From NCBI GenBank assembly GCA_050303855.1, contig JBNLCO010000006.1, positions 1,820-65,819 of the forward strand: a stretch of DNA of 64,000 bases, given 5' to 3'. Of this stretch, positions 11,649 through 63,908 are shown piece after piece. Every line of letters starts with the position of its first letter. The stretch's first letter is position 1. The notes under the pieces were generated by a model. That model was not told the origin of the DNA, did not search any database, and saw only the letters and a program-made list of their open reading frames with translations. Source of the DNA: Candidatus Pacearchaeota archaeon. GTDB lineage: Archaea > Nanobdellota > Nanobdellia > Pacearchaeales > GW2011-AR1. The translations under genes and the position numbers were made by a program.

Positions 11649-12710
11649 ATGATTTCTATAAAGAAAAAATGGAGAGAGTTGCCGAAAGAAGAAAGATTAA
11701 ATATTCCTGAAAAAGAATTCAAAATATCTTCATCAAAAATAGAAAACATTAGGAAAATAAAAGACCCAAAAACAAGATTAATTGAAGCTGCAAGAATACA
11801 ATATGAAAAGTTTAGACAAATAAATTCTTACATAACAACTTGGATTGCAGGATACGGGAGTGATGTAGTAATAAGACAAAAATTTGGATCTACAAAAAAT
11901 CTTTACAAAATCTTCTTTAAAGATATTGAACATCATTCAGAAGTACATCTTTCTTGGCCAGACATAAAGAGAAGAGTAAGAATACCAAAAGAAATAACAG
12001 GAGATCTAGCGGAAGAGGTAGGAATACATATAGGAGACGGAAATCTGCAAAATGCACCAAGAAAAGATGGAATAAAATATTATGTTTACACAATTACTGG
12101 AGATTTAAAAGATGAAGAAATATATCACAAAAAGCATCTCAAAGAATTATTACATAAGATTTATGGAATAAAACCAACAATTATAGAAAGACCATCAAAA
12201 AATTCCATTGAAACAAGAATTAAGTCCAGAGCCGTGACAGAATTTAAAAAGAATATTCTAAAATTAGATTCTGGAAACAAGAAAAAAATAAAAATTCCTG
12301 GAGAAATAATGAAAAACAAAGAGTTATCAAAAAGATGTGCTGCAGGGATTATTGATACCGATTTTAGTATAACAAGTTCGATAGCAATCACAGGAAAATT
12401 AGCAAGTTTTACTATTCTTGACCAACTAGCAGAAATATTCACAAAAAACAAAATCAAGTTTAAACTAACAAAATATAAAGGATACGGAAGATTCTACATC
12501 AACAAAAAAGGAGCAATAGAAATAATAAATAAATGGAAATTAAACAATATAAAACACCTTTCAAAATATGAATGTTACATAAAATTTAGAAATACTTTCC
12601 CAAATTCAAAAACAACAGAACGAATAGCATTAATTAAAGGAAAAATAGGTCATCAAGACCTACTAGAAATATGTAATAAAAGAAGGAAATACGCCCCAGG
12701 CAGGACTTGA
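11649..12710 (+). CDS. Free-standing two-motif LAGLIDADG-family homing-endonuclease-like protein.
   Basis: Two LAGLIDADG-type motifs: AEEVGIHIGDGNL and AAGIIDTDFSI. The 3' end overlaps tRNA-Asn on the opposite strand. It is paralogous to the ORFs at 43811-44650 and 53707-54444. Confidence 0.6.
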   Translation: MISIKKKWRELPKEERLNIPEKEFKISSSKIENIRKIKDPKTRLIEAARIQYEKFRQINSYITTWIAGYGSDVVIRQKFGSTKNLYKIFFKDIEHHSEVHLSWPDIKRRVRIPKEITGDLAEEVGIHIGDGNLQNAPRKDGIKYYVYTITGDLKDEEIYHKKHLKELLHKIYGIKPTIIERPSKNSIETRIKSRAVTEFKKNILKLDSGNKKKIKIPGEIMKNKELSKRCAAGIIDTDFSITSSIAITGKLASFTILDQLAEIFTKNKIKFKLTKYKGYGRFYINKKGAIEIINKWKLNNIKHLSKYECYIKFRNTFPNSKTTERIALIKGKIGHQDLLEICNKRRKYAPGRT

Positions 12711-12779
12711 ACCTGCGACCTAACGGTATCTGTTTGGGAAATAACAGCCGTTCGCTCTAACCAACTGAGCTACCAGGGC
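12692..12779 (-). tRNA. tRNA-Asn (anticodon GTT) with a 14-nt intron at the canonical 37/38 position.
   Basis: Minus strand. Acceptor GCCCTGG/CTGGGGC. D-arm GCTC-AGTTGGTTA-GAGC. Anticodon stem AACGG/CCGTT. Loop CTGTTA, then intron TTTCCCAAACAGAT, then A. T-arm GCAGG-TTCAAGT-CCTGC. The intron pairs with the anticodon (CTGTT/AACAG), consistent with a BHB motif. Confidence 0.8.
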
Positions 12780-12854
12780 ATTAAATCTGAAGATAATTTT
12801 CTTATTTAAAGGTTTTCCCCCAAACTTTTTAACTCAAATTTTACTAACAATTCT

Positions 12855-41596: not shown

Positions 41597-42121
41597 ATGA
41601 AAAAGATTCAAGCACACTTAATTGGAGAAACAATCTCCACAAACGAATCAGAAGCATTCACGTTACAAAAGAAATCTCAATTCGGAGAACAATCTGGACA
41701 AAAAATACAATATACTTTATCAGAAGCATTATATCTTTTAGAAAAAAATAAAATTGAGGTGTTACAAAAAAATAAAGTGCTAAGTCACAACGAATTGTTC
41801 AACAAAATAAAAAGAATAGATTCAAGAATTCAACTAAAATATCCTGTATTCAAGGATTTAAGAGAAAAAGGATATGTAGTAAAAACAGCATTAAAATTTG
41901 GAGCAGATTTCAGAGTGTATCCAAAAGGCGTGAAAGTAGGACAAAAAAACCAACATTCAAAGTGGATTGTTTTCTGCGAACACGAATCAAAGAAATTTTC
42001 ATGGCATGAATTCTCTGCAAAAAACCGTGTAGCGCATAGCACAAAAAAGAACTTACTAATTGCAATAGTTGATGAAGAATCCGATATTTCTTATTACGAA
42101 ATTAGGTGGATTAGAACCTAG
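41597..42121 (+). CDS. endA: tRNA-splicing endonuclease (alpha4-type catalytic subunit).
   Basis: C-terminal catalytic domain FGADFRVYPKG...HSKWIVFC...RVAHSTKKNLLIAIV matches the EndA Tyr/His/Lys catalytic triad region. 174 aa fits the homotetrameric type. Confidence 0.75.
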   Translation: MKKIQAHLIGETISTNESEAFTLQKKSQFGEQSGQKIQYTLSEALYLLEKNKIEVLQKNKVLSHNELFNKIKRIDSRIQLKYPVFKDLREKGYVVKTALKFGADFRVYPKGVKVGQKNQHSKWIVFCEHESKKFSWHEFSAKNRVAHSTKKNLLIAIVDEESDISYYEIRWIRT

Positions 42122-52630: not shown

Positions 52631-53539
52631 ATGACAGAGAAAATAAAAATAACATTTCTAGGAACATCTGCAAGCATTCCTACTTTGAAGCGAAATCACA
52701 CCGCAATACTTCTTCAATACAAAAAAGAGAATATTCTAATAGATTGTGGAGAAGGAACTCAGAGACAATTCCGTAAAGCTAAACTAAACCCTGGAAAATT
52801 AACAAAAATTCTAATAACTCACTGGCATGGAGATCATGTCCTAGGTCTCCCCGGATTATTCCAAACCCTAGCTCTAAGCGAATATAATAAAGAACTAAGA
52901 ATATTTGGTCCAAAGAATACAAAAGAATATCTAAAAAACTTCATAAGAATATTCGTTCCCGTTTTTAGATTTAAAGCAAAAATAGAAGAAGTAACAAAAA
53001 AACAAAAATTCTTTGAGGACTCTGAGCTATACTTAGAATCTGAAATAATGGAACATGGAATTCCCACAAACGCATATAATTTTGTAATAAAAGATAAACT
53101 TAGAATTGACAAAAACAAACTAAAGAAAGCAAAAATTCCTCACGGAAAGCATTTATCCGAATTAAAGAATGGAAAGAACATAAAAGTCAAGGGAAAAACT
53201 TACAAGGCAAAAGATTTCACCTATTTAGAAAAGGGAAAGAAAATCTCATTCATAATTGATACGGTTTTCAACAAGAAAATTGAAAAATTTGTAGAAGACT
53301 CTGATCTATTAATTTGCGAAAGTAGCTTCGATGACACTGAATCAGAAACTGCAAAGGAACACAAACACATGACTTCAGGACAAGCAGGACAAATTGCAAA
53401 ACGTGCCAATGTCCAAAAACTTATTCTAACTCATATTTCACAACGTTACGAAACAAGACTTGATGAATTATTAAAAAATGCAAAGAAACATTTCAAGAAT
53501 TCTTCTATAGTAAATGATTTTGACACAATTGAGATATAA
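52631..53539 (+). CDS. rnz: Ribonuclease Z (tRNA 3' endonuclease).
   Basis: MBL motif HWHGDH. N-terminal FLGTSASIPT. 302 aa, short-form RNase Z. Confidence 0.85.
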   Translation: MTEKIKITFLGTSASIPTLKRNHTAILLQYKKENILIDCGEGTQRQFRKAKLNPGKLTKILITHWHGDHVLGLPGLFQTLALSEYNKELRIFGPKNTKEYLKNFIRIFVPVFRFKAKIEEVTKKQKFFEDSELYLESEIMEHGIPTNAYNFVIKDKLRIDKNKLKKAKIPHGKHLSELKNGKNIKVKGKTYKAKDFTYLEKGKKISFIIDTVFNKKIEKFVEDSDLLICESSFDDTESETAKEHKHMTSGQAGQIAKRANVQKLILTHISQRYETRLDELLKNAKKHFKNSSIVNDFDTIEI

Positions 53540-53546
53540 AGATAAA

Positions 53547-53672
53547 TGCCCCGGACAGGATTCGAACCTGCGACTTCCAGCTTACTTTCCAGACTTAACT
53601 GGATAGAAGGTTTGCCTAAATCTCATTTTATTCAATTTATCTGGCACTCTATCCAGGCTGAGTTACCGGAGC
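53547..53672 (-). tRNA. tRNA gene with an unusually long (about 40-46 nt) non-canonical insertion in the anticodon region. Isotype unresolved.
   Basis: Minus strand. Acceptor GCTCCGG/CCGGGGC. D-arm ACTC-AGCCTGGATA-GAGT. T-arm GCAGG-TTCGAAT-CCTGT. Discriminator A. Between the D-arm and T-arm there are about 73 nt containing CCAGA...TCTGG and a duplicated CCAG. No 7-nt loop with U33 can be formed by a single canonical 37/38 intron, so the intron is either non-canonical or multiple. Confidence 0.55.
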
Positions 53673-53706
53673 ATATTATAATCATATAAAATAGGGTTTA
53701 AAAGTT

Positions 53707-54444
53707 TTACATTTCATAAAGACTTTCTGGAATTAATTCATTTTGCAAGATCAATTCTCTTTGTTTAAGAGAAGAAGGGGTTGGACAAAAACCATGTTTT
53801 TTCCAGACAAGATATTTCGTAAATTTAGAGTAATTATTGAAACCTATAGAATCCATCCATTTATTTATTCTTTCTGGACCCCTAACAGCAATCCGATAAA
53901 CATCTGCCTCATTAACCTTCTTCTTTGAAGAAAAGTGAACAGAATGGCCAATGTTCAAGAAATCCAACAAAAAACTCAAATCAAAAATAATTTGCTTAGA
54001 AACAACACCAATAAAAATCCTCGGATAAGTATGATATTTTCTCTTAAAAGAAGAATATCCTTTTTCATAACGTTTCATAAAATTTAAACAACCATCACAA
54101 TCAGCAAAACCCCTTATAAAAGCCGAAATTATGTTCTTGTCTTTAGAAAATAAAATTTCATGTGGAATTTTTACCGAATAGGTCTTTCTACGAGTAAAAC
54201 CAAAATCCTTGAAAATCTTAATTATCTCCTTCCTACAGATGTAAAACCCATAAACAGAATTGCTTTCTTTCTCATGTGCATTTACATTTATTCCAAATAC
54301 TTTAGAAAACAAAGGGCAAACAACCCTATCATAGTATTCCTTATCTTCATGAATATTGCCCCACATACTAATATGATTCTCCTGCAAATTCCCATCTGCT
54401 GCAAACATTCCAAATATTTCCGAAAGACCTTCTGTAATCTCCAT
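53707..54444 (-). CDS. Free-standing two-motif LAGLIDADG-family protein (paralogue 3).
   Basis: Motifs LSEIFGMFAADGNL and FIRGFADCDGCL. It lies immediately upstream, on the same strand, of the unusual intron-containing tRNA. Confidence 0.6.
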   Translation of the reverse strand: MEITEGLSEIFGMFAADGNLQENHISMWGNIHEDKEYYDRVVCPLFSKVFGINVNAHEKESNSVYGFYICRKEIIKIFKDFGFTRRKTYSVKIPHEILFSKDKNIISAFIRGFADCDGCLNFMKRYEKGYSSFKRKYHTYPRIFIGVVSKQIIFDLSFLLDFLNIGHSVHFSSKKKVNEADVYRIAVRGPERINKWMDSIGFNNYSKFTKYLVWKKHGFCPTPSSLKQRELILQNELIPESLYEM

Positions 54445-55004: not shown

Positions 55005-55077
55005 GCGGAGGTGGCACAGCGGCTACTGCGGTCGGCTGCAACCCGGCTTTTCGTGGGTTCGAGTCCCACCCTCCGCT
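55005..55077 (+). tRNA. tRNA-Cys (anticodon GCA).
   Basis: Acceptor GCGGAGG/CCTCCGC. D-stem of 3 bp. Anticodon stem GTCGG/CCGGC (one G-U). Loop CTGCAAC. T-arm GTGGG-TTCGAGT-CCCAC. Discriminator T. Confidence 0.75.
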
Positions 55078-55125: not shown

Positions 55126-55836
55126 ATGAACAAAGCTACAATTTTAGGAGGATTAGCAACAATCTTAGCTCTAACAAGTTGTTCGATAGAAAATAAAATA
55201 CAAGAAAATCCAAAACCAAGAGCAACTTATCAAGAAAACGGACTTGCAAACATCTCAATACCAAAATATGAAAAGATTGGAGAGATAGGCGAACTAAAAA
55301 TTCAAGGTTTTAACAAATATTTTATACAAAAGATAGAAATAAGTGATACTGCAAATAATGAAGAAATGCTCCCTTTCATAATATATGATTTCAACAAGGA
55401 AAACAAAAAACTAGTCAAACAAAACATTAATCCAGACAACGAATACATTTTCTTAAAAGCAAGGGCAGAAACACCTTCCAAAAACAACCTTATTCAAGAA
55501 CTAGAAATACTGGGATATCGTTCAAAAAATCCTAGCCTCCAATCAGATTCAACAATAAGGGTTTACACCATAGACAATATCCAAAGGGCCTTAAAACCGT
55601 TCAGCCTATTAAAAACAGATTACATATATCCTTTAGTAACAACCAGCGATGAAAAAGCAGAAGGAAAAACACCCTTTTATGTAATCCCTGCTAACAACAA
55701 CATAGAAATCTCTGAAGAAAACGAAAGTGCACTAATAAAAACTCCTGGAGAAATATACAGAGGGATCAATCCAAAAATAGCAACTCCCTTTGAAAATATA
55801 AGAAAATCGGTTATAGATTTAAGAGATTTCTTCTAA
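55126..55836 (+). CDS. Putative secreted lipoprotein, 236 aa.
   Basis: N-terminal signal with lipobox-like LALTSC. Confidence 0.45.
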   Translation: MNKATILGGLATILALTSCSIENKIQENPKPRATYQENGLANISIPKYEKIGEIGELKIQGFNKYFIQKIEISDTANNEEMLPFIIYDFNKENKKLVKQNINPDNEYIFLKARAETPSKNNLIQELEILGYRSKNPSLQSDSTIRVYTIDNIQRALKPFSLLKTDYIYPLVTTSDEKAEGKTPFYVIPANNNIEISEENESALIKTPGEIYRGINPKIATPFENIRKSVIDLRDFF

Positions 55837-58800
55837 AGTTCACTCCCAGATTTAGCACCTTTAGATTGCAAATAACTAACAACATCAACATTATTAAGTT
55901 GAACAGCTCGATCTAACGCTGTTTCTCCAGAATCACTTTGGGTATTAACCTCTGCACCATTTTCAACAAGATATTTTACAATGTCAACATCTCCCTTAAT
56001 AGAGGCATGTATAAGAGCGGTCCAACCTTCTATACCATCTTTAACACTAACATCTGCACCATTTTCAACAAGATATTTTACAAGGTCAAGATGTCCAAGA
56101 CGAGATGCATAAATCAAAGGAGTCCATCCATCATCATCTTTAACATTGATATCAGCTCCTTGTTCAATCAAGGACATTATCTCAGCCCTATTATTGTCAT
56201 CCAGACCTCTATAAAGAGCATCAACTAACTGTTGATCAAGATTATCTAAACCAATTCCCTCAATACAAGTTTTAGTCAAGCCTGGTTCCTGAACACAATT
56301 CTTGCCTAATTTGTAACCAATTGATGCGCAAAGATTAGCATCGCAATAATTAGAAGTGCCACTTGTAGAACTTATACTTGTTATACAATCACTACACTGT
56401 GTTGCACTAGAATAAACGTCCCTTTGTTCAGCAGAAAGAGTATTCCAATTCGGAATATCAGAAGTGTCGTCTTGAGCAGGTTGTGCTTCTTTACAACTCA
56501 AGAACCCATATTCACAAGTCTTACCAATTCTTTCCCCAATATCTAAGCATTCAGTCTCACCACAGAAGTTACCCAAACCAGACCCACAATCATTACACTG
56601 AGTTGCTTCATATATTGATCTTAATTCTCTATCTGTGTACCCTTCTCCTGCACGACAATTGTATATAGGAGTATCACTTATATCTGCACCCTTTGCATAA
56701 TACTGACAAGAAGCGCCTAATTTTTTACCAATAACTGCACATAAATTACTATCACAATCATCAGGATAACTCTCACAATAAACGCAACTAGGAGCATCAT
56801 AAAGTATTGAAATTTGTTTTGAAGTAAACCTGCCCAAATCGGTGCTTCCTAAATTCTCACTCTCCCAAGAATCCAATTTTTGAGAATCAACATCCTGTGT
56901 AGACTCAATTATTGAATTATCCGACAAATCATAAAGCAGGGCAGCCCCCTCAAAATAAGTCTTATCAACAAGGCTCACGGTAACAGATTGTATTGGATCT
57001 GAAGGAATTGAACCTACAACCTTAGCTTCACCTGAAACCAAAACCTGACTAGCAGCTTTATTAAATGAAACGTCCGAAACATCAAACCAATAACGTGGAT
57101 CAATACCCCTAGTAGGATTAAATTCCCATACACCTTCTTTAAATCTAAAGTAATAAGGCTGTTCATTAAAAGAAAGATCTACCTTAAAGATACCTTCACT
57201 ATTCAAATTAACATTCTCTGTTTTCAAATCCGGACTAGAACTAATGAAATTAATTCTACCAAACAAAACACCCCCACTGAAACTAAGAACATTATTTATA
57301 ATAACTCCAAGACCCTCTATGTAGTTGCCATTACGTTCTTGAAGAGAAGTAATTATTTGTCTATTCACCTCCAATGAAACTGCCTTACCTTCAATACTAT
57401 CGCTAACAGAATACCAAAAATTATCTTTGGGATTAAACCAATACCAACCTCCCTCTTGGAACTTATAGTGAACATTTCTATAACTAGTTCCATCTTGGAA
57501 TTCAATATCAGGAGAAGAATATCCTGAAGAAAACTTGGCTAAAACACTACTAACTCCCGTACCACCAGTACCCGTAGAAATAGTTGTGCCACTTAATTGA
57601 GGAGATCTATATAGATAAACAGGATGAACATCAGAAGTTAAATACAAATTCGTGTATCTGTAAGTATTACAATATTGTTCCTCATTAACTTTACCCTTAT
57701 TAAGAGTTCTAACATACTTATTATCTTCTCCACAAACAAGCCCATTTTCATCTTTCTCATCGATCTTCAAATCTGCACCATTCCAATCAAAGATTCTAGC
57801 ATATCCAGTAACAGAAGTAGTTTCTTCATTTGTGGCAGGATTAATCCAAGAAATAAATATAACCGAGTGAGGCAATTTAGAGGCCCAAACAATATCCAAC
57901 TGGTCTCCAGGTTGAAGAGATGCTAGTTTAGTATCATAGTTATCTTCTCCGATCTTATTATAACCTGTTCCAACTTGGAAAATAACACTTCCTTGAGAAG
58001 TTTTATCTACGCCAATTGTAACTTTTGAATTTGAATCCTTTAAGGTATAGGTGGCCCCAGATTTATCTGCATAAGAAGGAACAGCAGAAACCCCTGCATA
58101 TTGGTATACATAAACAGCAGCACTATAGCACGCATAATCTCCAGAGAAAGCCAAACCCCCATCTAATTTTTCTGCAGCTTTCAATACTCTTTGCCGAGCA
58201 TCATCAATTGAAGAAATATCACTAGGAACTTGAGGCAAGATGCAAACGTTTCCTTGGTCATCAACAATTGTTCCAAGGTCCACACTATTTGTTTTTATTT
58301 GTTCAATCTTACCAAATTCCAAACCAGAAAGATCTCCATAAGCCAAACCTCTCAAGAAATAAAGTTCAGCTTTTTGATTACTAAAGAATACCTTATCCAA
58401 AATATTATTTATTATTTCTATCTTCTTAGAAGAATCAGATTCTTTCTTAACGTCTCTTAAAGTCTGACTATAATTCTGATTGTTAACATAATCTCCAGAA
58501 TTTACCAAATCATCAAGATAACTCTGAGCGGTGTCATTTAAAACAGAATTCTCAACATCTAAGGATTTAATAGCATCTTTAACGGAATCAGTATCTAGCC
58601 AACAACCAACGTTTGTATCTGTACAGTAACCCACTTTTCTCCATCTTGCATTTTCAGTCCCATCCTTAGCATCCGTTCCAATACCAGGGCTGTTTGTAGC
58701 ACAAACTCTTGTAATACCTTTTTGGTACAGCTCAGGGTTGATTAAACCTTCAGCCACATCTTGAAGGTTAGGATTCAATAAGCTATACAAACTAGCACTT

Positions 58801-61800
58801 CCAGAAACACATTCTTCTTCTGTTGTAACCCCCGAAGTAGTTTGTTCCTGCAAATACAAATCATTAACATAATTAACTGCAAAAGAAGTTGACACTTTTC
58901 CGAAACCACACTCTTCCTGATTATTTACAACAATACATAATTGGGTATATCCTGAAGGTGCAGTAAAGTCAACTGTATCTGAAGCATAATCTCCTACTGA
59001 AACGTAACCGGAATCAACTACTCTATTAAGCGCGCTATCTTGATAGAAACTCCCACTTCCACCCTTAAGATAAACTCTGTAATAAGCTCCAGAATCTTGT
59101 CCAGAATAAATGTGGTAATAAACCTTATACTGTGAGGTGGGAGGATTTGTTGCGGTAGTAAATGGAATCTCATCAAAGCTTCCTGTAAATTGCGGAGGCG
59201 AACGTGGAGTAGTTAAACTATCTAATAATTCAGCACTAGAAGGGTAAACCGTAGATACATAACTTTTACAAACCGCAGTTCCAGCTTCATCAACACTTCT
59301 AACTTTGAAAGCATTATAAGATTCAGAAGCATAATATTGTTTAAAGTAGTCTAAAGAATCTTTTGCATTATCCCATGCACTCTGTAATCCCAGATATTCT
59401 CCTCCACCACGGGTGTTCTCTCCTGAAATTAATCCAATTAATTTTGGAACAGCTACTTTAGCCAAAGGTATTGATTGTCTCCAAAAGAATTCACAAGCAT
59501 AAACACTATGTATCTCGTCACAAACACCAATAGTTTCTCCACTCTCCAAATTTTCCTGCAAACAATCCCTATATGATTCCTGGACACTTATCCATGAATC
59601 CAAACCAGCTTGAACACCTGTTGTACAAACCGGAACCTTTATCCCCTCTTTATAATTTGGTGCACAGAGAGCAATACTTCCAACTATTCCTGTCTGAACA
59701 ACATCCTTAACAGGGTAAGCCCCTCCAAAATCACATCTTGAGCTAGGACAAACAACAGGATCACAAACATTAAACAATAAATTACATTCTTTAGGAGACA
59801 TGAAATCTTGACACTGAACTGCGGGAGTTTCTACCGCAGGTTCTCCAACTTTGTAATTCTGACCGTTGATTCTAACAGAATTAACTCCATTCTTATAAGC
59901 TCTCTGAGCCTTCTCAATCGAATCAACAGCATCAGTTACAAGCCTTGTAGTTTTACTTTCACTCAATCCAGCAAATTGATTATAAACAGTTCCAGGAACC
60001 CCCACATTAATTTGTTGGCAAATATCATCTCCTAAACCAGAACTAGAAAATTCTTCCAAACCATTAGATCCAACGTTACATAACCAGAAACTATTCAATC
60101 TACCTGAAGCATCATAAGCAGTAATCTGACTTCCAACAGGAAGCTTAGGTTTAGTTGCAGCATACCAACCATCATTTGTATCTAAAGGAACAATCGCAGG
60201 ATAACCTTTGTAAGGGTCTTCCTCATAATACCTTACTTCTGGATTCTTATAACTATTCTCATATGAACCTTCATCATATTTATCAAAAGCTAAACTCAGA
60301 GGGTTTACTTTATCATTAACCATAACCAACTGACCATTCAAAGGATTTAACTGGAATGTTCTAGTAACAATATAATCATCATTCAAAACCAAAAGATATT
60401 CCCTATTAGTAGCTATATCAACAACCGGATAAACCAATTCATTATCCGCAATAAGATAATCTGCAGGGTTTCCAGGGAAGATAATCGAATTTGGAAGTAA
60501 AACAACACTCATCCCTCCAGGATATGAACTTTCAACATCTGCCCAAGTCTTTAAATCAGAAACCTGAATTCTCTTTATCTTATCATCTGAAGAAATAAAT
60601 CCTCCCTGGTGACCCTCTAGAGAATACTTGTCAAAGAAAGAAGTTCTTTCTACAAAATTCCCTGCGTTATTTTGAACGTCATAAAGCAAAGAGTAAAGTG
60701 TTTGGCTGTAAGACTTCTTGCTCTCAGCATCATTTGTACTCTTAACTAAAGTTGCATAAAGCTCTATATCTTTAAGATCATCTATGCTATAGATACCACT
60801 TTCCCAACCCTGGTAACTTAACAAATTCTTAATTTCATCAATCTCAAGAGGTTCATTTTTACCAGTAGGATCGACGAAAGTATTACCCAAGCCCACTAAA
60901 GAATCAGATCCAATCTGAGAATAATCCTTCATAAATTCCTGTTGATCAACAACCTTATTTGTTAAAGTTCCTGTTTGCAAAGAATCAGCTTCAAGTTGTT
61001 TTATTCTTTCATTCTGAGTTTGTATTGTATTGAAAACTTCATCAACTTGAGAATCTATCTCATCAGAATTCTCAAGGAAACAATCATCTAGAGAAATATA
61101 ATTCCCTTTACTTACTTCACTAGCACAAAAATCATTCCACCCTCCAGAACTACGCATGACCTTCTGTCTCGCTATAGATTTACCATCCGAGTTAGCCAAG
61201 AAATTCTTAGCAGTTAAAACAGCTCCTGTTGCTAAACAAACCTTAGCACTAGCTTCATTAAACGTATTGAGAGCATTTGAAGCCTTTTCAAGATCAGAAA
61301 TTGCATTACTTAAACTATCAACCCTATTCTCAATCTGTTCGTCAGAAAGTTGTATTGAACGTTTCTCTATGCCAATATTAAATCCAAATTCAGATTCAGA
61401 ATTCTGATAATTAAAACTTGGAACCACTGAAACCCTTGCAACCTTTTCTATGTTAGTATCAGTAAGGGTTAAACTATACCCTCCTCCAATACCTCTTGTT
61501 TCATCAATATCAAAAGTATAGCTATTCAAAGAAAATAATTGATTTGCAAGATTTTCTCCAGAAACATAAACCGTAACCCTTGCAGAATCTTCATCCACCG
61601 AATCTAGTTTAATATATTCTGAACCAGAAGCATTATCTTTTAAATTCAAATATACAACTTTATCCTTTCTTAATTGATAAGTCTGGATCTTACCGTCCGA
61701 ACTTCTTATCAAAACTTCTGCACCGTATTCTTGGTAAGTAGGCTCTTTTATACCTTCAAAGGAAATTGTTTTTATCTCTCCGTTAACTAAAACATCTCTA

Positions 61801-63908
61801 TTAGAAATACCCGAGTTAGATAAAGAATAGTCATCTTCACACATATCTAAAGGTTTAATTGAATCAGGATAGCTCTCAATAAATTCTTGACAAAGTTGTT
61901 TCAAAGCCTTATTTTGATTGATCCTTTTAGAAAGATTAATAGCCTGATACAAAGCTCTCTCACCATAAGTATCATCTGCCCCATCAATACTTAACCCTCC
62001 AAAACTATTCAAAACAGTTTCAAAATCAGTTATAGCTTTATCATAATATTGTTTATACAACTCGTTTGAATTTGAATTAAATACAAGTTTGTTTAAAACA
62101 AGTTTATTCTCATTAACTAAAACACTTCCTGAAACAACTCCTTCAAAAAAGTCTCCTGAAACGCTGTTATCTACCTTTGATAAAATATACTCAGAACAAG
62201 ACTGATGTAAAGAACAATCCTTTCCATAAAATTCTCCCACACCTAAAATCTCCGTCACAGTGTTCTTTCTCAAAATAAATTTAGGAGATCCACTCTCACT
62301 AGCAGTAAAATAATAACCTGTATCTTCTCCATCCTTGTAAACTTTGTAAACTTGTTTAGGCAAAATCCCTCCAACATCTAAATTAGCTTTCTGTAAATCA
62401 TAAGATTCCGGAACAACCTCAACAACCCCATTATCTTCTCCTTCAGAAAAACCACTTAAGGAAACTTTTTCTCCTTCAAAATCATATTGAGGGGAAACAA
62501 CATTTGTCTTAAAATCAACTTTTTGTATATTTTGTCCGCTAACAGTCCATTTGGCAAGAGTAACTGAAGCCCCTGAGAATTTCTTTAGAATTTCGGCCCC
62601 AATATCAAAAACCGCTGCTCCTGAACCTTCAGTATCCGAAAACAACAGATTCATTTGTATTGCAATACTTGAAATTTCATCCTCTGTTAACTTAGTTTTC
62701 TCTTCAGGTAAAGAAACCAAAACGGCATATAAATTTTCAACATCTGTTGATCCACCCTTAGAACTAATATAACCCAAATAAACACCTCTTCCATTGTTAG
62801 AATAAAGATAATCTCCAACAGAATAATCTTTAGCAATTCCATCAATAGAGATTCTCACTCTAGGGGACAAAAATAAATTAAAACTAGAACTGCCATCATC
62901 TTCCTTACACCTAATACTAACTTTCTGATTCAAACCATTCTTGTCCAAATCTGTTACAGTACACTTACTTTCTAAGAAATCACCATTATCATTAATTTCA
63001 ACATGATCTGTATTAATCAACAACTCTGCTCTAGTATCTGGATCTTCAACACCATTAAGTTTCAACTTCATTGAAGCCAAACAAGGGCTAAAACCAGGAA
63101 TATAAATCGAACCAGAAGTTTCACCTCCATTCAATCTAACTTGAGTAACTCTTTGCTTTCCAGAGTTTCCAAAACTAGCAGATCCAGAAGAAACATCAGA
63201 ATAAAGAGATATACTGGCATCATCCGTGCCAACACTATCAGCCCTAAGGTACCCTCTACCTTCCCAAAAACTATACTGATTTATATTGTTAAAATAATCC
63301 TCATCATTCAAAACAGGAAGATAAAATTCAGCCTGACCAACGCCAAATGCATTCTTAACATCATAATTAATCTTGGCTGTTAGATTTCCAGAAACAAAAT
63401 CAGGCATAGAACTTTCATTAGGGTTTTGTCTAAGGGTTATAGCAACATAACCCAAATTATTCAAAGCAGGATCAGTAAGAGTTTCATCAAAATCATAATA
63501 ACCCAAAGCAGACTGGGAAGGGAAATAACCAATACTCTTTATTTCTCTAGGATACTCCCCAACAATGTTTAGAGTGTTTATAGCTTGAACATCAATCAAA
63601 GGATTTATTTGTGTAGCTCCAATTTTACACAAAACAGTAACATCTTGTTCTTCAAGAAGATCACTCCTCACAACTGCAGGCTCACATTCAAAAGGTTGTA
63701 TTTGTAAAAGAAAATCTGTTCCAGCAGAACATAATTCGCTATCAAAACCTTGCTGAGTAAAACTTGCAAAACTTCCCCCAACACCTCCAGCATTGTTATA
63801 CAAAGAATAACTAGGAGTAGAAACGCTATAAGCCTCTATCCCTCCCAAAAGAAGAGTCCCCAATATCAAAACAAAAATACCTACAACAAAAAACTTATTC
63901 TTAATCAT
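55833..63908 (-). CDS. Giant secreted/surface protein (2691 aa) with a Cys-rich triple module and C-terminal ankyrin repeats.
   Basis: GGAGG lies 10 nt upstream of the ATG. N-terminal signal peptide MIKNKFFVVGIFVLILGTLLLGG. Long Ser/Gly/Asn/Asp-rich beta-like body. Three tandem Cys-rich units near the C-terminus (CVYCESYPDDCDSNLCAVIGKKLGASC..., CNDCGSGLGNFCGETECLDIGERIGKTC..., CSDCITSIS...YCDANLCASIGYKLGKNC...). Then about three or four ankyrin repeats (DGWTPLIYASRLGHLDLVKYLVENGADV...). Confidence 0.8.
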   Translation of the reverse strand: MIKNKFFVVGIFVLILGTLLLGGIEAYSVSTPSYSLYNNAGGVGGSFASFTQQGFDSELCSAGTDFLLQIQPFECEPAVVRSDLLEEQDVTVLCKIGATQINPLIDVQAINTLNIVGEYPREIKSIGYFPSQSALGYYDFDETLTDPALNNLGYVAITLRQNPNESSMPDFVSGNLTAKINYDVKNAFGVGQAEFYLPVLNDEDYFNNINQYSFWEGRGYLRADSVGTDDASISLYSDVSSGSASFGNSGKQRVTQVRLNGGETSGSIYIPGFSPCLASMKLKLNGVEDPDTRAELLINTDHVEINDNGDFLESKCTVTDLDKNGLNQKVSIRCKEDDGSSSFNLFLSPRVRISIDGIAKDYSVGDYLYSNNGRGVYLGYISSKGGSTDVENLYAVLVSLPEEKTKLTEDEISSIAIQMNLLFSDTEGSGAAVFDIGAEILKKFSGASVTLAKWTVSGQNIQKVDFKTNVVSPQYDFEGEKVSLSGFSEGEDNGVVEVVPESYDLQKANLDVGGILPKQVYKVYKDGEDTGYYFTASESGSPKFILRKNTVTEILGVGEFYGKDCSLHQSCSEYILSKVDNSVSGDFFEGVVSGSVLVNENKLVLNKLVFNSNSNELYKQYYDKAITDFETVLNSFGGLSIDGADDTYGERALYQAINLSKRINQNKALKQLCQEFIESYPDSIKPLDMCEDDYSLSNSGISNRDVLVNGEIKTISFEGIKEPTYQEYGAEVLIRSSDGKIQTYQLRKDKVVYLNLKDNASGSEYIKLDSVDEDSARVTVYVSGENLANQLFSLNSYTFDIDETRGIGGGYSLTLTDTNIEKVARVSVVPSFNYQNSESEFGFNIGIEKRSIQLSDEQIENRVDSLSNAISDLEKASNALNTFNEASAKVCLATGAVLTAKNFLANSDGKSIARQKVMRSSGGWNDFCASEVSKGNYISLDDCFLENSDEIDSQVDEVFNTIQTQNERIKQLEADSLQTGTLTNKVVDQQEFMKDYSQIGSDSLVGLGNTFVDPTGKNEPLEIDEIKNLLSYQGWESGIYSIDDLKDIELYATLVKSTNDAESKKSYSQTLYSLLYDVQNNAGNFVERTSFFDKYSLEGHQGGFISSDDKIKRIQVSDLKTWADVESSYPGGMSVVLLPNSIIFPGNPADYLIADNELVYPVVDIATNREYLLVLNDDYIVTRTFQLNPLNGQLVMVNDKVNPLSLAFDKYDEGSYENSYKNPEVRYYEEDPYKGYPAIVPLDTNDGWYAATKPKLPVGSQITAYDASGRLNSFWLCNVGSNGLEEFSSSGLGDDICQQINVGVPGTVYNQFAGLSESKTTRLVTDAVDSIEKAQRAYKNGVNSVRINGQNYKVGEPAVETPAVQCQDFMSPKECNLLFNVCDPVVCPSSRCDFGGAYPVKDVVQTGIVGSIALCAPNYKEGIKVPVCTTGVQAGLDSWISVQESYRDCLQENLESGETIGVCDEIHSVYACEFFWRQSIPLAKVAVPKLIGLISGENTRGGGEYLGLQSAWDNAKDSLDYFKQYYASESYNAFKVRSVDEAGTAVCKSYVSTVYPSSAELLDSLTTPRSPPQFTGSFDEIPFTTATNPPTSQYKVYYHIYSGQDSGAYYRVYLKGGSGSFYQDSALNRVVDSGYVSVGDYASDTVDFTAPSGYTQLCIVVNNQEECGFGKVSTSFAVNYVNDLYLQEQTTSGVTTEEECVSGSASLYSLLNPNLQDVAEGLINPELYQKGITRVCATNSPGIGTDAKDGTENARWRKVGYCTDTNVGCWLDTDSVKDAIKSLDVENSVLNDTAQSYLDDLVNSGDYVNNQNYSQTLRDVKKESDSSKKIEIINNILDKVFFSNQKAELYFLRGLAYGDLSGLEFGKIEQIKTNSVDLGTIVDDQGNVCILPQVPSDISSIDDARQRVLKAAEKLDGGLAFSGDYACYSAAVYVYQYAGVSAVPSYADKSGATYTLKDSNSKVTIGVDKTSQGSVIFQVGTGYNKIGEDNYDTKLASLQPGDQLDIVWASKLPHSVIFISWINPATNEETTSVTGYARIFDWNGADLKIDEKDENGLVCGEDNKYVRTLNKGKVNEEQYCNTYRYTNLYLTSDVHPVYLYRSPQLSGTTISTGTGGTGVSSVLAKFSSGYSSPDIEFQDGTSYRNVHYKFQEGGWYWFNPKDNFWYSVSDSIEGKAVSLEVNRQIITSLQERNGNYIEGLGVIINNVLSFSGGVLFGRINFISSSPDLKTENVNLNSEGIFKVDLSFNEQPYYFRFKEGVWEFNPTRGIDPRYWFDVSDVSFNKAASQVLVSGEAKVVGSIPSDPIQSVTVSLVDKTYFEGAALLYDLSDNSIIESTQDVDSQKLDSWESENLGSTDLGRFTSKQISILYDAPSCVYCESYPDDCDSNLCAVIGKKLGASCQYYAKGADISDTPIYNCRAGEGYTDRELRSIYEATQCNDCGSGLGNFCGETECLDIGERIGKTCEYGFLSCKEAQPAQDDTSDIPNWNTLSAEQRDVYSSATQCSDCITSISSTSGTSNYCDANLCASIGYKLGKNCVQEPGLTKTCIEGIGLDNLDQQLVDALYRGLDDNNRAEIMSLIEQGADINVKDDDGWTPLIYASRLGHLDLVKYLVENGADVSVKDGIEGWTALIHASIKGDVDIVKYLVENGAEVNTQSDSGETALDRAVQLNNVDVVSYLQSKGAKSGSEL
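55951..56085. repeat. Direct DNA repeat (about 31 bp, near-identical, period 99-103 bp) inside the ankyrin-repeat coding region.
   Basis: TCTGCACCATTTTCAACAAGATATTTTACAA(T/G) occurs at 55951-55982 and 56054-56085. The period equals one 33-aa ANK repeat. Confidence 0.7.

Follow-up and report, generated by a model that had tools for sequence, protein, structure and literature searches.

A tRNA-Arg(UCU) gene split by two predicted bulge-helix-bulge introns, one of them non-canonical, beside a free-standing LAGLIDADG gene in a Pacearchaeota archaeon

The DNA considered here, referred to as the window, is a stretch of 64,000 nucleotides (nt) from a contig of a Candidatus Pacearchaeota archaeon, and our subject is an interrupted tRNA gene on its minus strand together with the LAGLIDADG gene that lies upstream of it. 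The tRNA gene occupies 53547-53672 (-), is 126 nt long and encodes no CCA. It scores 42.5 bits with Rfam RF00005 (gathering score 29), in agreement with an earlier sequence-only reading, which had described a 126-nt minus-strand tRNA with perfect acceptor, D and T arms; all three arms are placed by the Rfam alignment and are wholly paired in the pre-tRNA once the wobbles U3-G70 and G49-U65 are counted. The anticodon-stem strands CCAG and CUGG are separated by 60 nt. As the same reading had noted, the region holds CCAGA and TCTGG, 46 nt apart, and a further CCAG copy, which we place at pre-tRNA positions 71-74. A default run of ARAGORN missed the gene. No single excision gives a 7-nt anticodon loop with U33, whether every split of the 60-nt insert is followed by hand or by an exhaustive one-intron search, which upholds the earlier statement that a canonical 37/38 intron alone does not yield such a loop. 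The same search returned one-intron solutions for other loci; the window gene has a two-intron solution only.

Read with two introns, the gene resolves into five segments, all on the minus strand. The 5' exon at 53641-53672 covers tRNA positions 1-30 (pre-tRNA bases 1-32), and its bases 12-32 form a 21-mer found in 12 archaeal loci. It is followed by intron 1 at 53611-53640 (30 nt, AUAAAUUGAAUAAAAUGAGAUUUAGGCAAA), by a middle exon CCUUCUA at 53604-53610 (tRNA positions 31-37, with the anticodon UCU at 53605-53607), which equals the same positions of intronless orthologs, by intron 2 at 53583-53603 (21 nt, UCCAGUUAAGUCUGGAAAGUA), and by the 3' exon at 53547-53582 (tRNA positions 38-73), delimited by the Rfam alignment and ARAGORN. 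Removal of both introns leaves a 75-nt product that ARAGORN calls tRNA-Arg(tct). Its anticodon arm, CCAGC CUUCUAA GCUGG, has a 5-bp (base pair) stem and the 7-nt loop CUUCUAA, so that the product combines anticodon UCU, U33, a purine at position 37 and a type I cloverleaf. In eight sampled open reading frames (ORFs) of the window, AGA accounts for 64% of arginine codons and AGA together with AGG for 85%, which implies a need for tRNA-Arg(UCU); judged from these data, the gene would encode the main arginine tRNA of the archaeon. A TATA-like box, CTTTTAAA, at 53697-53704 (-) precedes the tRNA 5' end by 25-32 nt and lies in the 34-nt spacer past the LAGLIDADG stop codon. The same motif occurs in the corresponding spacers of L027, L032, L033 and L035 (loci of other genomes are designated by L numbers throughout), and the box is a putative promoter. 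Taken together, we regard it as highly probable that the locus encodes a functional tRNA-Arg(UCU) split by two archaeal introns of the bulge-helix-bulge (BHB) type.

Intron 1 lies at the non-canonical position 30/31, in the 5' strand of the anticodon stem. It was the top-ranked motif, at pre-tRNA bases 33-62, in an unbiased scan of the pre-tRNA for BHB geometry, taken as a 4-bp helix between two bulges of 3 nt, each cut after its second base, and its removal joins G30 to C31. The central helix UGCC/GGCA is paired at four of four positions, the bulges are AG/A and AA/C (the slash marks the cut), and the outer and inner helices comprise 3 and 6 bp. This is a strict hBHBh' (helix-BHB-helix) arrangement whose excision restores a canonical tRNA, and intron 1 is accordingly predicted to be a BHB-type intron, spliced by the tRNA splicing endonuclease EndA. 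A C/D-box guide RNA was also considered for intron 1 and rejected on inspection: the intron lacks C and D boxes, and the BHB central helix explains its conserved ends. Intron 2 lies at the canonical position 37/38 and was found by ARAGORN in intron mode once intron 1 had been removed. Its BHB geometry agrees: bases 32-35 face the intron, with C32-U34 paired to it in a central helix CUUC/AAAG that is closed at three of four positions, bases 36-37 and 38 lie in the bulges, and the inner helix CCAG/CUGG has 4 bp. The outer helix of intron 2 reaches 5 bp only when intron 1 is gone.

The intron boundaries are fixed by relatives as well as by BHB geometry. Scanning one genome per species with 21 bases of the 5' exon retrieved 12 archaeal loci, the closest of them in metagenome-assembled genomes of Woesearchaeota, Pacearchaeota and Nanoarchaeota. 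Ten of the 12 carry an intronless tRNA-Arg(UCU) that reads ...GAGTGCCAGCCTTCTAAGCTGGAAGTCG..., exactly the predicted spliced sequence, and these ten DPANN orthologs all share CCAGC CTTCTAA GCTGG. Compared by eye, the window product matches the intronless gene of L016 at 71 of 75 positions and is identical to it over bases 8-65. The comparison with orthologous tRNAs, as suggested in the sequence-only reading, supports these intron boundaries. L007 and L010 have the canonical intron only. The two-intron architecture (30/31 plus 37/38) recurs in four further loci: L019 and L022, obtained by a metagenome scan that required an insertion ahead of CTTCTA, and L031 and L038, reached through the LAGLIDADG protein. 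These four differ in their acceptor stems and have introns of 13-38 nt and 12-31 nt, and in all five two-intron genes intron 1 sits at 30/31 and measures 13-38 nt. The pairs of its central helix are U-A G-C C-G C-G in the window, L019 and L022, C-G A-U C-G U-A in L031, and C-G G-C C-G U.G in L038; three of the four pairs change on both sides, within a small sample of five genes and three helix types. Such compensatory changes across lineages indicate that the non-canonical intron is a real, selected RNA structure and not a decaying insertion. Other genes of the clade place their first, non-canonical intron nearby, so that in this one isoacceptor the positions cluster from 27/28 to 30/31: L030 has an intron at 29/30 and L036 at 28/29, each with a BHB central helix paired at four of four positions at its own site, and L029 has one at 27/28 with a relaxed motif (two of four pairs under the strict rule). 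For intron 2, the central helix is complete, at four of four, in L019, L022, L007, L010 and L032.

Folding of the precursor suggests how the two introns may be related. In the unconstrained minimum-free-energy (MFE) fold the D-arm is not formed. Instead, the D-loop/D-stem segment CCUGGAUAGA-G (53647-53656, -) pairs with 53599-53608, giving an extended outer helix that presents the intron-1 BHB: bases 17-26 (D-loop plus 3' D-stem strand) are paired to U33-A37 and on into intron 2 as far as its fifth base, and U25-C28 pair with GGCA of intron 1. When conformers were compared with the 5' bulge forced open, the intron-1-presenting fold with a 4-nt 3' bulge came to -40.0 kcal/mol, the unconstrained minimum to -40.4 kcal/mol, the cloverleaf-constrained fold to -36.7 kcal/mol and the strict 3/3-bulge BHB form to -36.0 kcal/mol. 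The conformer that unwinds the D-arm and presents intron 1 is thus predicted to be as stable as the minimum-energy fold. A D-arm/intron-2 helix of 9-10 bp is found in all five 30/31 two-intron genes, through wobble changes, and is absent from control genes that have only the canonical or only a non-canonical intron. The two BHB motifs cannot coexist, because both use C32-U34; from this overlap, and from the dependence of the 5-bp outer helix of intron 2 on the removal of intron 1, we infer that splicing is ordered, with intron 1 leaving first. In such a pathway, the primary transcript would prefer a fold other than the cloverleaf, with the D-arm unwound, U25-C28 paired to the GGCA of the intron in a 4-bp central helix, and G22-G24 and the D-loop paired to the anticodon loop and to the start of intron 2. 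Both splice sites of intron 1 would then be exposed in bulges for cutting by EndA; after ligation the 5-bp anticodon stem CCAGC/GCUGG could form and the D-arm refold, whereupon the canonical BHB of intron 2 would appear, to be cut and ligated into the 75-nt tRNA.

A gene for such an endonuclease is present in the window. EndA, at 41597-42121 (+), is a single alpha-type unit of 174 amino acids (aa) that carries the domains PF02778 and PF01974 and matches TIGR00324. It aligns over its full length to Methanocaldococcus jannaschii EndA (1a79) and to the Nanoarchaeum equitans alpha subunit (3iey_A), and inspection of the alignment to 1a79 shows matching Y, H and K motifs, which suggests that the catalytic Tyr/His/Lys are present. 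In size (the range being about 170-180 aa), in having N-terminal and catalytic domains and in these residues it resembles an alpha4 subunit, and within the 64-kb window it is a candidate for that type. The loop between Tyr and His, PKGVKVGQKNQ, exceeds that of M. jannaschii by 2 aa and falls 4 aa short of that in the N. equitans alpha subunit; it may correspond to the L3 loop, an extra loop that has been tied to broad specificity in DPANN enzymes (PMC5829648). The EndA announced by the sequence-only reading at this place is there, with both Pfam domains, and may be of the alpha4 type suggested; the relaxed BHB specificity ascribed to it may not be needed, because intron 1 can form a strict hBHBh', although the energetically preferred conformer has a 3' bulge of 4 nt. 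RNase Z, at 52631-53539 (+; TIGR02651, 336 bits), converges on the tRNA, whose 3' end is 7 nt away, so that the adjacency pointed out before is real. The RNase Z/Sm/TFB synteny is also found in relatives with an intronless tRNA, and the adjacency is therefore conserved synteny with no connection to the introns. The window has a G+C content of 30-37% and archaeal genes for TFB, an Sm protein, RNase Z and EndA.

Several points count against a functional two-intron tRNA. In intron 2 of the window gene the central helix contains a C35.A mismatch; in intron 1 the presenting conformer with the 4-nt 3' bulge is favoured over the strict 3/3 form by 4 kcal/mol, and in an unconstrained fold of a mini-substrate the 5' bulge bases are paired. 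The relatives of the same architecture probably share ancestry and are thus not fully independent, with 64 kb of the genome in view an intronless second copy of tRNA-Arg(UCU) may exist elsewhere, and that splicing occurs, its order and the identity of the ligase are matters we infer. One could on these grounds see the locus as a decaying tRNA pseudogene with two insertions, and ARAGORN's failure to call it by default fits, as does its Rfam score, the lowest among the seven tRNAs of the window. We consider this very improbable: the exon bases form a perfect cloverleaf identical over bases 8-65 to the intronless gene of L016, both insertions lie within BHB motifs with compensatory changes across lineages, AGA is the dominant arginine codon, and the promoter-like box is conserved in relatives. 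The match and its odd insert are evidently more than chance, because, besides that identity, the anticodon arm equals that of ten orthologs and the architecture recurs in four other loci. The sequence-only reading had left three options, namely an intron at a non-canonical position, a pair of introns or an atypical variable arm, and had named Leu(UAA) as a possible isotype. The first two options turn out to apply together; the variable loop, AAGUC, has a normal length of 5 nt, and the D-arm, with its 4-bp stem, is of type I. The view that the gene is a tRNA-Leu(UAA) with one non-canonical intron or an atypical variable arm could point to the UUAAG in the hairpin loop of intron 2, and is almost certainly wrong, being refuted by the ARAGORN call on the spliced product, by orthologs that are Arg(UCU) and by the exhaustive search, in which a single excision never gives a 5-bp stem with a 7-nt loop and U33.

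The second gene of interest, at 53707-54444 (-), lies upstream of the tRNA on the same strand, as had been reported, and ends 34 nt from it. It encodes a free-standing two-motif LAGLIDADG protein of 245 aa (Pfam LAGLIDADG_3), whose 107 homologs measure about 245 aa and share 43-71% identity with it. In an alignment of 40 sequences, the catalytic aspartates of the motifs FAADG (D17) and DCDG (D117) are invariant, as is a large number of further columns, and a C-terminal extension of about 45 aa is conserved. The AlphaFold2 model (pLDDT 94.6) has a predicted alpha-beta-beta-alpha-beta-beta-alpha double-domain LAGLIDADG fold with a DNA-binding saddle, and Foldseek matches it to the TliVMA intein endonuclease domain, I-Tsp061I and I-DmoI (7qsu, 2dch and 2vs7, probability 1.00; E-values 6e-13 to 1e-7); in sequence, a VMA intein endonuclease domain is matched with an E-value of 2e-9. 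Judged from the motifs and the model, the protein is likely to be active.

In all 14 loci with visible surroundings, the 3' end of the LAGLIDADG ORF abuts tRNA-Arg(UCU) and the wider neighbourhood varies. The two genes are in tandem in nine loci (the window, L010, L027, L029, L030, L032, L033, L035 and L036) and convergent in five (L019, L031, L034, L037 and L038), and the gap of 34 nt in the window is replaced elsewhere by gaps of 3-50 nt or by overlap. In L029 (3733-3756) and L036 (2739-2753), the LAGLIDADG frame enters the 5' part of the tRNA by 24 and 15 nt, respectively, and stops at a TAG in the D-arm. Six further family members have C-terminal extensions of the type GFEP... or GPDRI, which, by our reading of the alignment, may represent antisense translation of the T-arm or acceptor end of a convergent tRNA. 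The ORF is absent beside the tRNA in the close relatives L002 and L011, whose TFB is 92% identical. No description of a linkage between LAGLIDADG genes and tRNA-Arg(UCU) was found in the literature searched; this strict linkage is the unexpected part of the locus and is worth following up. In the convergent subgroup, an AbrB/MazE-like ORF of 45-47 aa overlaps the LAGLIDADG start (L031 2867-3004, L034 1862-1999, L038 1861-2004), which suggests a two-gene cassette; L037 has upstream sequence similar to this region, and the window lacks such an ORF. Many loci also have a tRNA-Cys(GCA) gene no more than about 2 kb from the LAGLIDADG/tRNA-Arg pair. The window copy (55005-55077, +) lacks an intron; the gene is located at 1344-1416 in L019, 1359-1430 in L027, 4027-4098 in L030 and 3986-4057 in L032; longer forms are found in L033 (2784-2931, 148 nt, with about 75 nt inserted), L037 (31-156, 126 nt) and L029 (3898-3982, 85 nt).

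Some simpler accounts of the pair were examined and set aside. An ORF inside a tRNA intron was suggested by L030, which seemed in Rfam to have a 3' half-tRNA; its sequence proved to be a complete gene with the 29/30 intron, downstream of the ORF. None of the loci examined has a partial tRNA copy at the end of the ORF that points away from the tRNA. A viral origin of the family was dropped, since no relatives were found in viral contigs (IMG/VR), and so was a rearrangement of the tRNA/RNase Z surroundings specific to the endonuclease, since endonuclease-negative loci vary in orientation too. Endonuclease identities are 52-80% against 51-70% for RNase Z, and the concordance between the two is weak and uninformative (rho 0.31, p 0.11).

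Introns and endonuclease tend to occur together. Among the endonuclease-positive loci, five have two introns, two a non-canonical intron only, two a canonical intron only and five none; among the negative loci, ten have none, L007 has the canonical intron and L022 has two. With the three loci that owed their discovery to introns set aside, any intron is present in 8 of 12 positive versus 1 of 11 negative loci (p=0.009), and a non-canonical intron in 6 of 12 versus 0 of 11 (p=0.014), where both tests ignore kinship, the lineages are not independent and the negatives were chosen by a fixed 21-mer.

The sequence-only reading saw in the ORF a possible former intron-encoded homing endonuclease; this may be so, given the likeness of its predicted fold to I-Tsp061I and I-DmoI, which are encoded in archaeal introns, but the classical intron- or intein-encoded arrangement is not what is found, as the ORF is free-standing in all 14 loci. 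Another account takes it as a free-standing homing endonuclease with a target in or beside tRNA-Arg(UCU) and the introns as resistant alleles that travel with it, as in collaborative homing. The constant position of its 3' end, facing the tRNA amid a varied neighbourhood, speaks for this, as do the C-terminal peptides read as antisense tRNA, the invariant catalytic aspartates in a fold of active archaeal homing endonucleases, the patchy distribution in close relatives, the association itself and the clustering of non-canonical introns at 27/28-30/31; a phage precedent is F-CphI with the psbA intron (PMC6083498). Yet five endonuclease-positive loci have an intronless tRNA, L022 and L007 have introns with no endonuclease gene in the DNA examined, the association rests on 21-mer-chosen negatives and is uncorrected for phylogeny, divergence like that of RNase Z fits long vertical persistence, and neither a viral relative in IMG/VR nor a target site was identified. 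We hold the account to be unlikely; it is compatible with a functional two-intron tRNA, for it addresses why the introns are present. Introns as an obligatory immunity are weakened further by L034, which is endonuclease-positive and intronless and has the anticodon arm of its endonuclease-negative relatives.

The protein could also be domesticated, with a host function at tRNA-Arg(UCU), for example as a regulator or DNA-binding factor, and be causally unrelated to the introns. A family of more than 100 intact proteins of uniform length, many invariant columns beyond the catalytic motifs and a divergence similar to that of the housekeeping neighbour RNase Z would suit such a role, and the domesticated LAGLIDADG proteins WhiA and bI3 maturase are among the fold matches. 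Domesticated LAGLIDADG proteins, however, usually lose their catalytic acidic residues, and both are invariant here; the gene is missing beside the tRNA in many close relatives, and the model matches WhiA and the maturase far less well than it does the endonucleases of inteins and introns. We rate domestication as rather improbable. The same low standing attaches to the boldest version of the homing account, in which a clade-wide, free-standing endonuclease family with intact catalytic residues, tied to the tRNA-Arg(UCU) gene of Woesearchaeota/Pacearchaeota-type DPANN archaea, would home by cutting endonuclease-free tRNA-Arg alleles and the BHB introns (27-31 and 37/38) in the anticodon-arm DNA would be resistant alleles that spread along with it. 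If true, it would be the first case in which a homing endonuclease and protein-spliced archaeal tRNA introns home collaboratively, and would supply a concrete mechanism for gaining non-canonical tRNA introns.

A few further observations concern other genes. At 12691-12780 (-), a 90-nt gene called tRNA-Thr(tgt) by ARAGORN reads by hand as tRNA-Asn(GUU) with a 14-nt canonical 37/38 intron (loop CUGUUA/UUUCCCAAACAGAU/A), whose central helix CUGU/ACAG is paired at four of four positions. In L006 (JAIORZ010000011.1) and L013 (DAIENA010000008.1), the last 17 nt of tRNA-Arg(UCU) (AAATCCTG...CG) are repeated 114 and 144 nt downstream, and between the copies lie inserts that are related to each other and share the ending ...TTGTGAGTA; the short T-arm repeat of L015 is a different one. 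A BHB intron in the T-arm was tried as an explanation of the duplicated 3' ends in the three loci and rejected, as no convincing BHB was found at any offset; from this, L006 and L013 look like an att-type duplication or a small mobile element that uses the tRNA 3' end. At 55833-63908 (-) lies an ORF of 2691 aa with an N-terminal hydrophobic segment, Cys-rich repeats and, seemingly, C-terminal ankyrin-type repeats.

The isotype call fills an apparently missing tRNA, as ARAGORN skips the gene though AGA is the commonest arginine codon. Incomplete tRNA sets have been reported for DPANN genomes, and the case is a caution for their annotation. It also shows, within one small gene, two BHB motifs whose overlap implies that splicing follows an order, and the LAGLIDADG linkage, together with the statistical association with introns, offers a lead on how and why non-canonical archaeal tRNA introns arise.

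Three kinds of known systems invite comparison. The LAGLIDADG protein shares with the intron-encoded I-DmoI and I-Tsp061I and with the intein endonuclease domains of TliVMA and PI-SceI a predicted monomeric two-domain fold and both catalytic acidic residues; unlike theirs, its gene lies outside any intron or intein, free-standing 34 nt upstream of a tRNA, and encodes an additional C-terminal extension of about 45 aa. Collaborative homing, in which a free-standing endonuclease acts together with an ORF-less intron, is described for F-CphI/psbA of cyanophage S-PM2 and for mobE/I-TevIII of T4 (PMC6083498, PMC2790892). The likeness is a free-standing endonuclease gene directly beside a gene with ORF-less introns. 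The phage introns are self-splicing group I introns in phage protein genes, whereas those considered here are protein-spliced BHB introns of a cellular tRNA; moreover, five endonuclease-positive loci are intronless, and homing in this case is a sequence-based reading. The closest parallel is with the archaeal multi-intron tRNA genes with non-canonical BHB introns, known from Thermoproteales, other Crenarchaeota, Methanopyrus, ARMAN and other DPANN (PMC4090602, PMC4033280, PMC5829648). Kaneta et al. reported that loop-bearing alpha4-type EndAs in DPANN go with more disrupted tRNA genes, and their survey includes multi-intron tRNA genes of a Pacearchaeota and of a Woesearchaeota genome (PMC5829648). 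On this basis the window gene belongs to an already known kind: its introns are short, ORF-less, BHB-defined and two to a gene, one of them is placed away from the anticodon loop and requires the pre-tRNA to fold differently, and a splicing endonuclease is encoded in the genome. It departs from that kind in occurring in a genome described as AT-rich (32% GC), mesophile-type and Woesearchaeota/Pacearchaeota-like, in the clustering of the non-canonical intron between 27/28 and 30/31 in one isoacceptor of one clade, in the predicted use of the first bases of intron 2 to build the helix that presents intron 1, and in its tight linkage to a LAGLIDADG gene.

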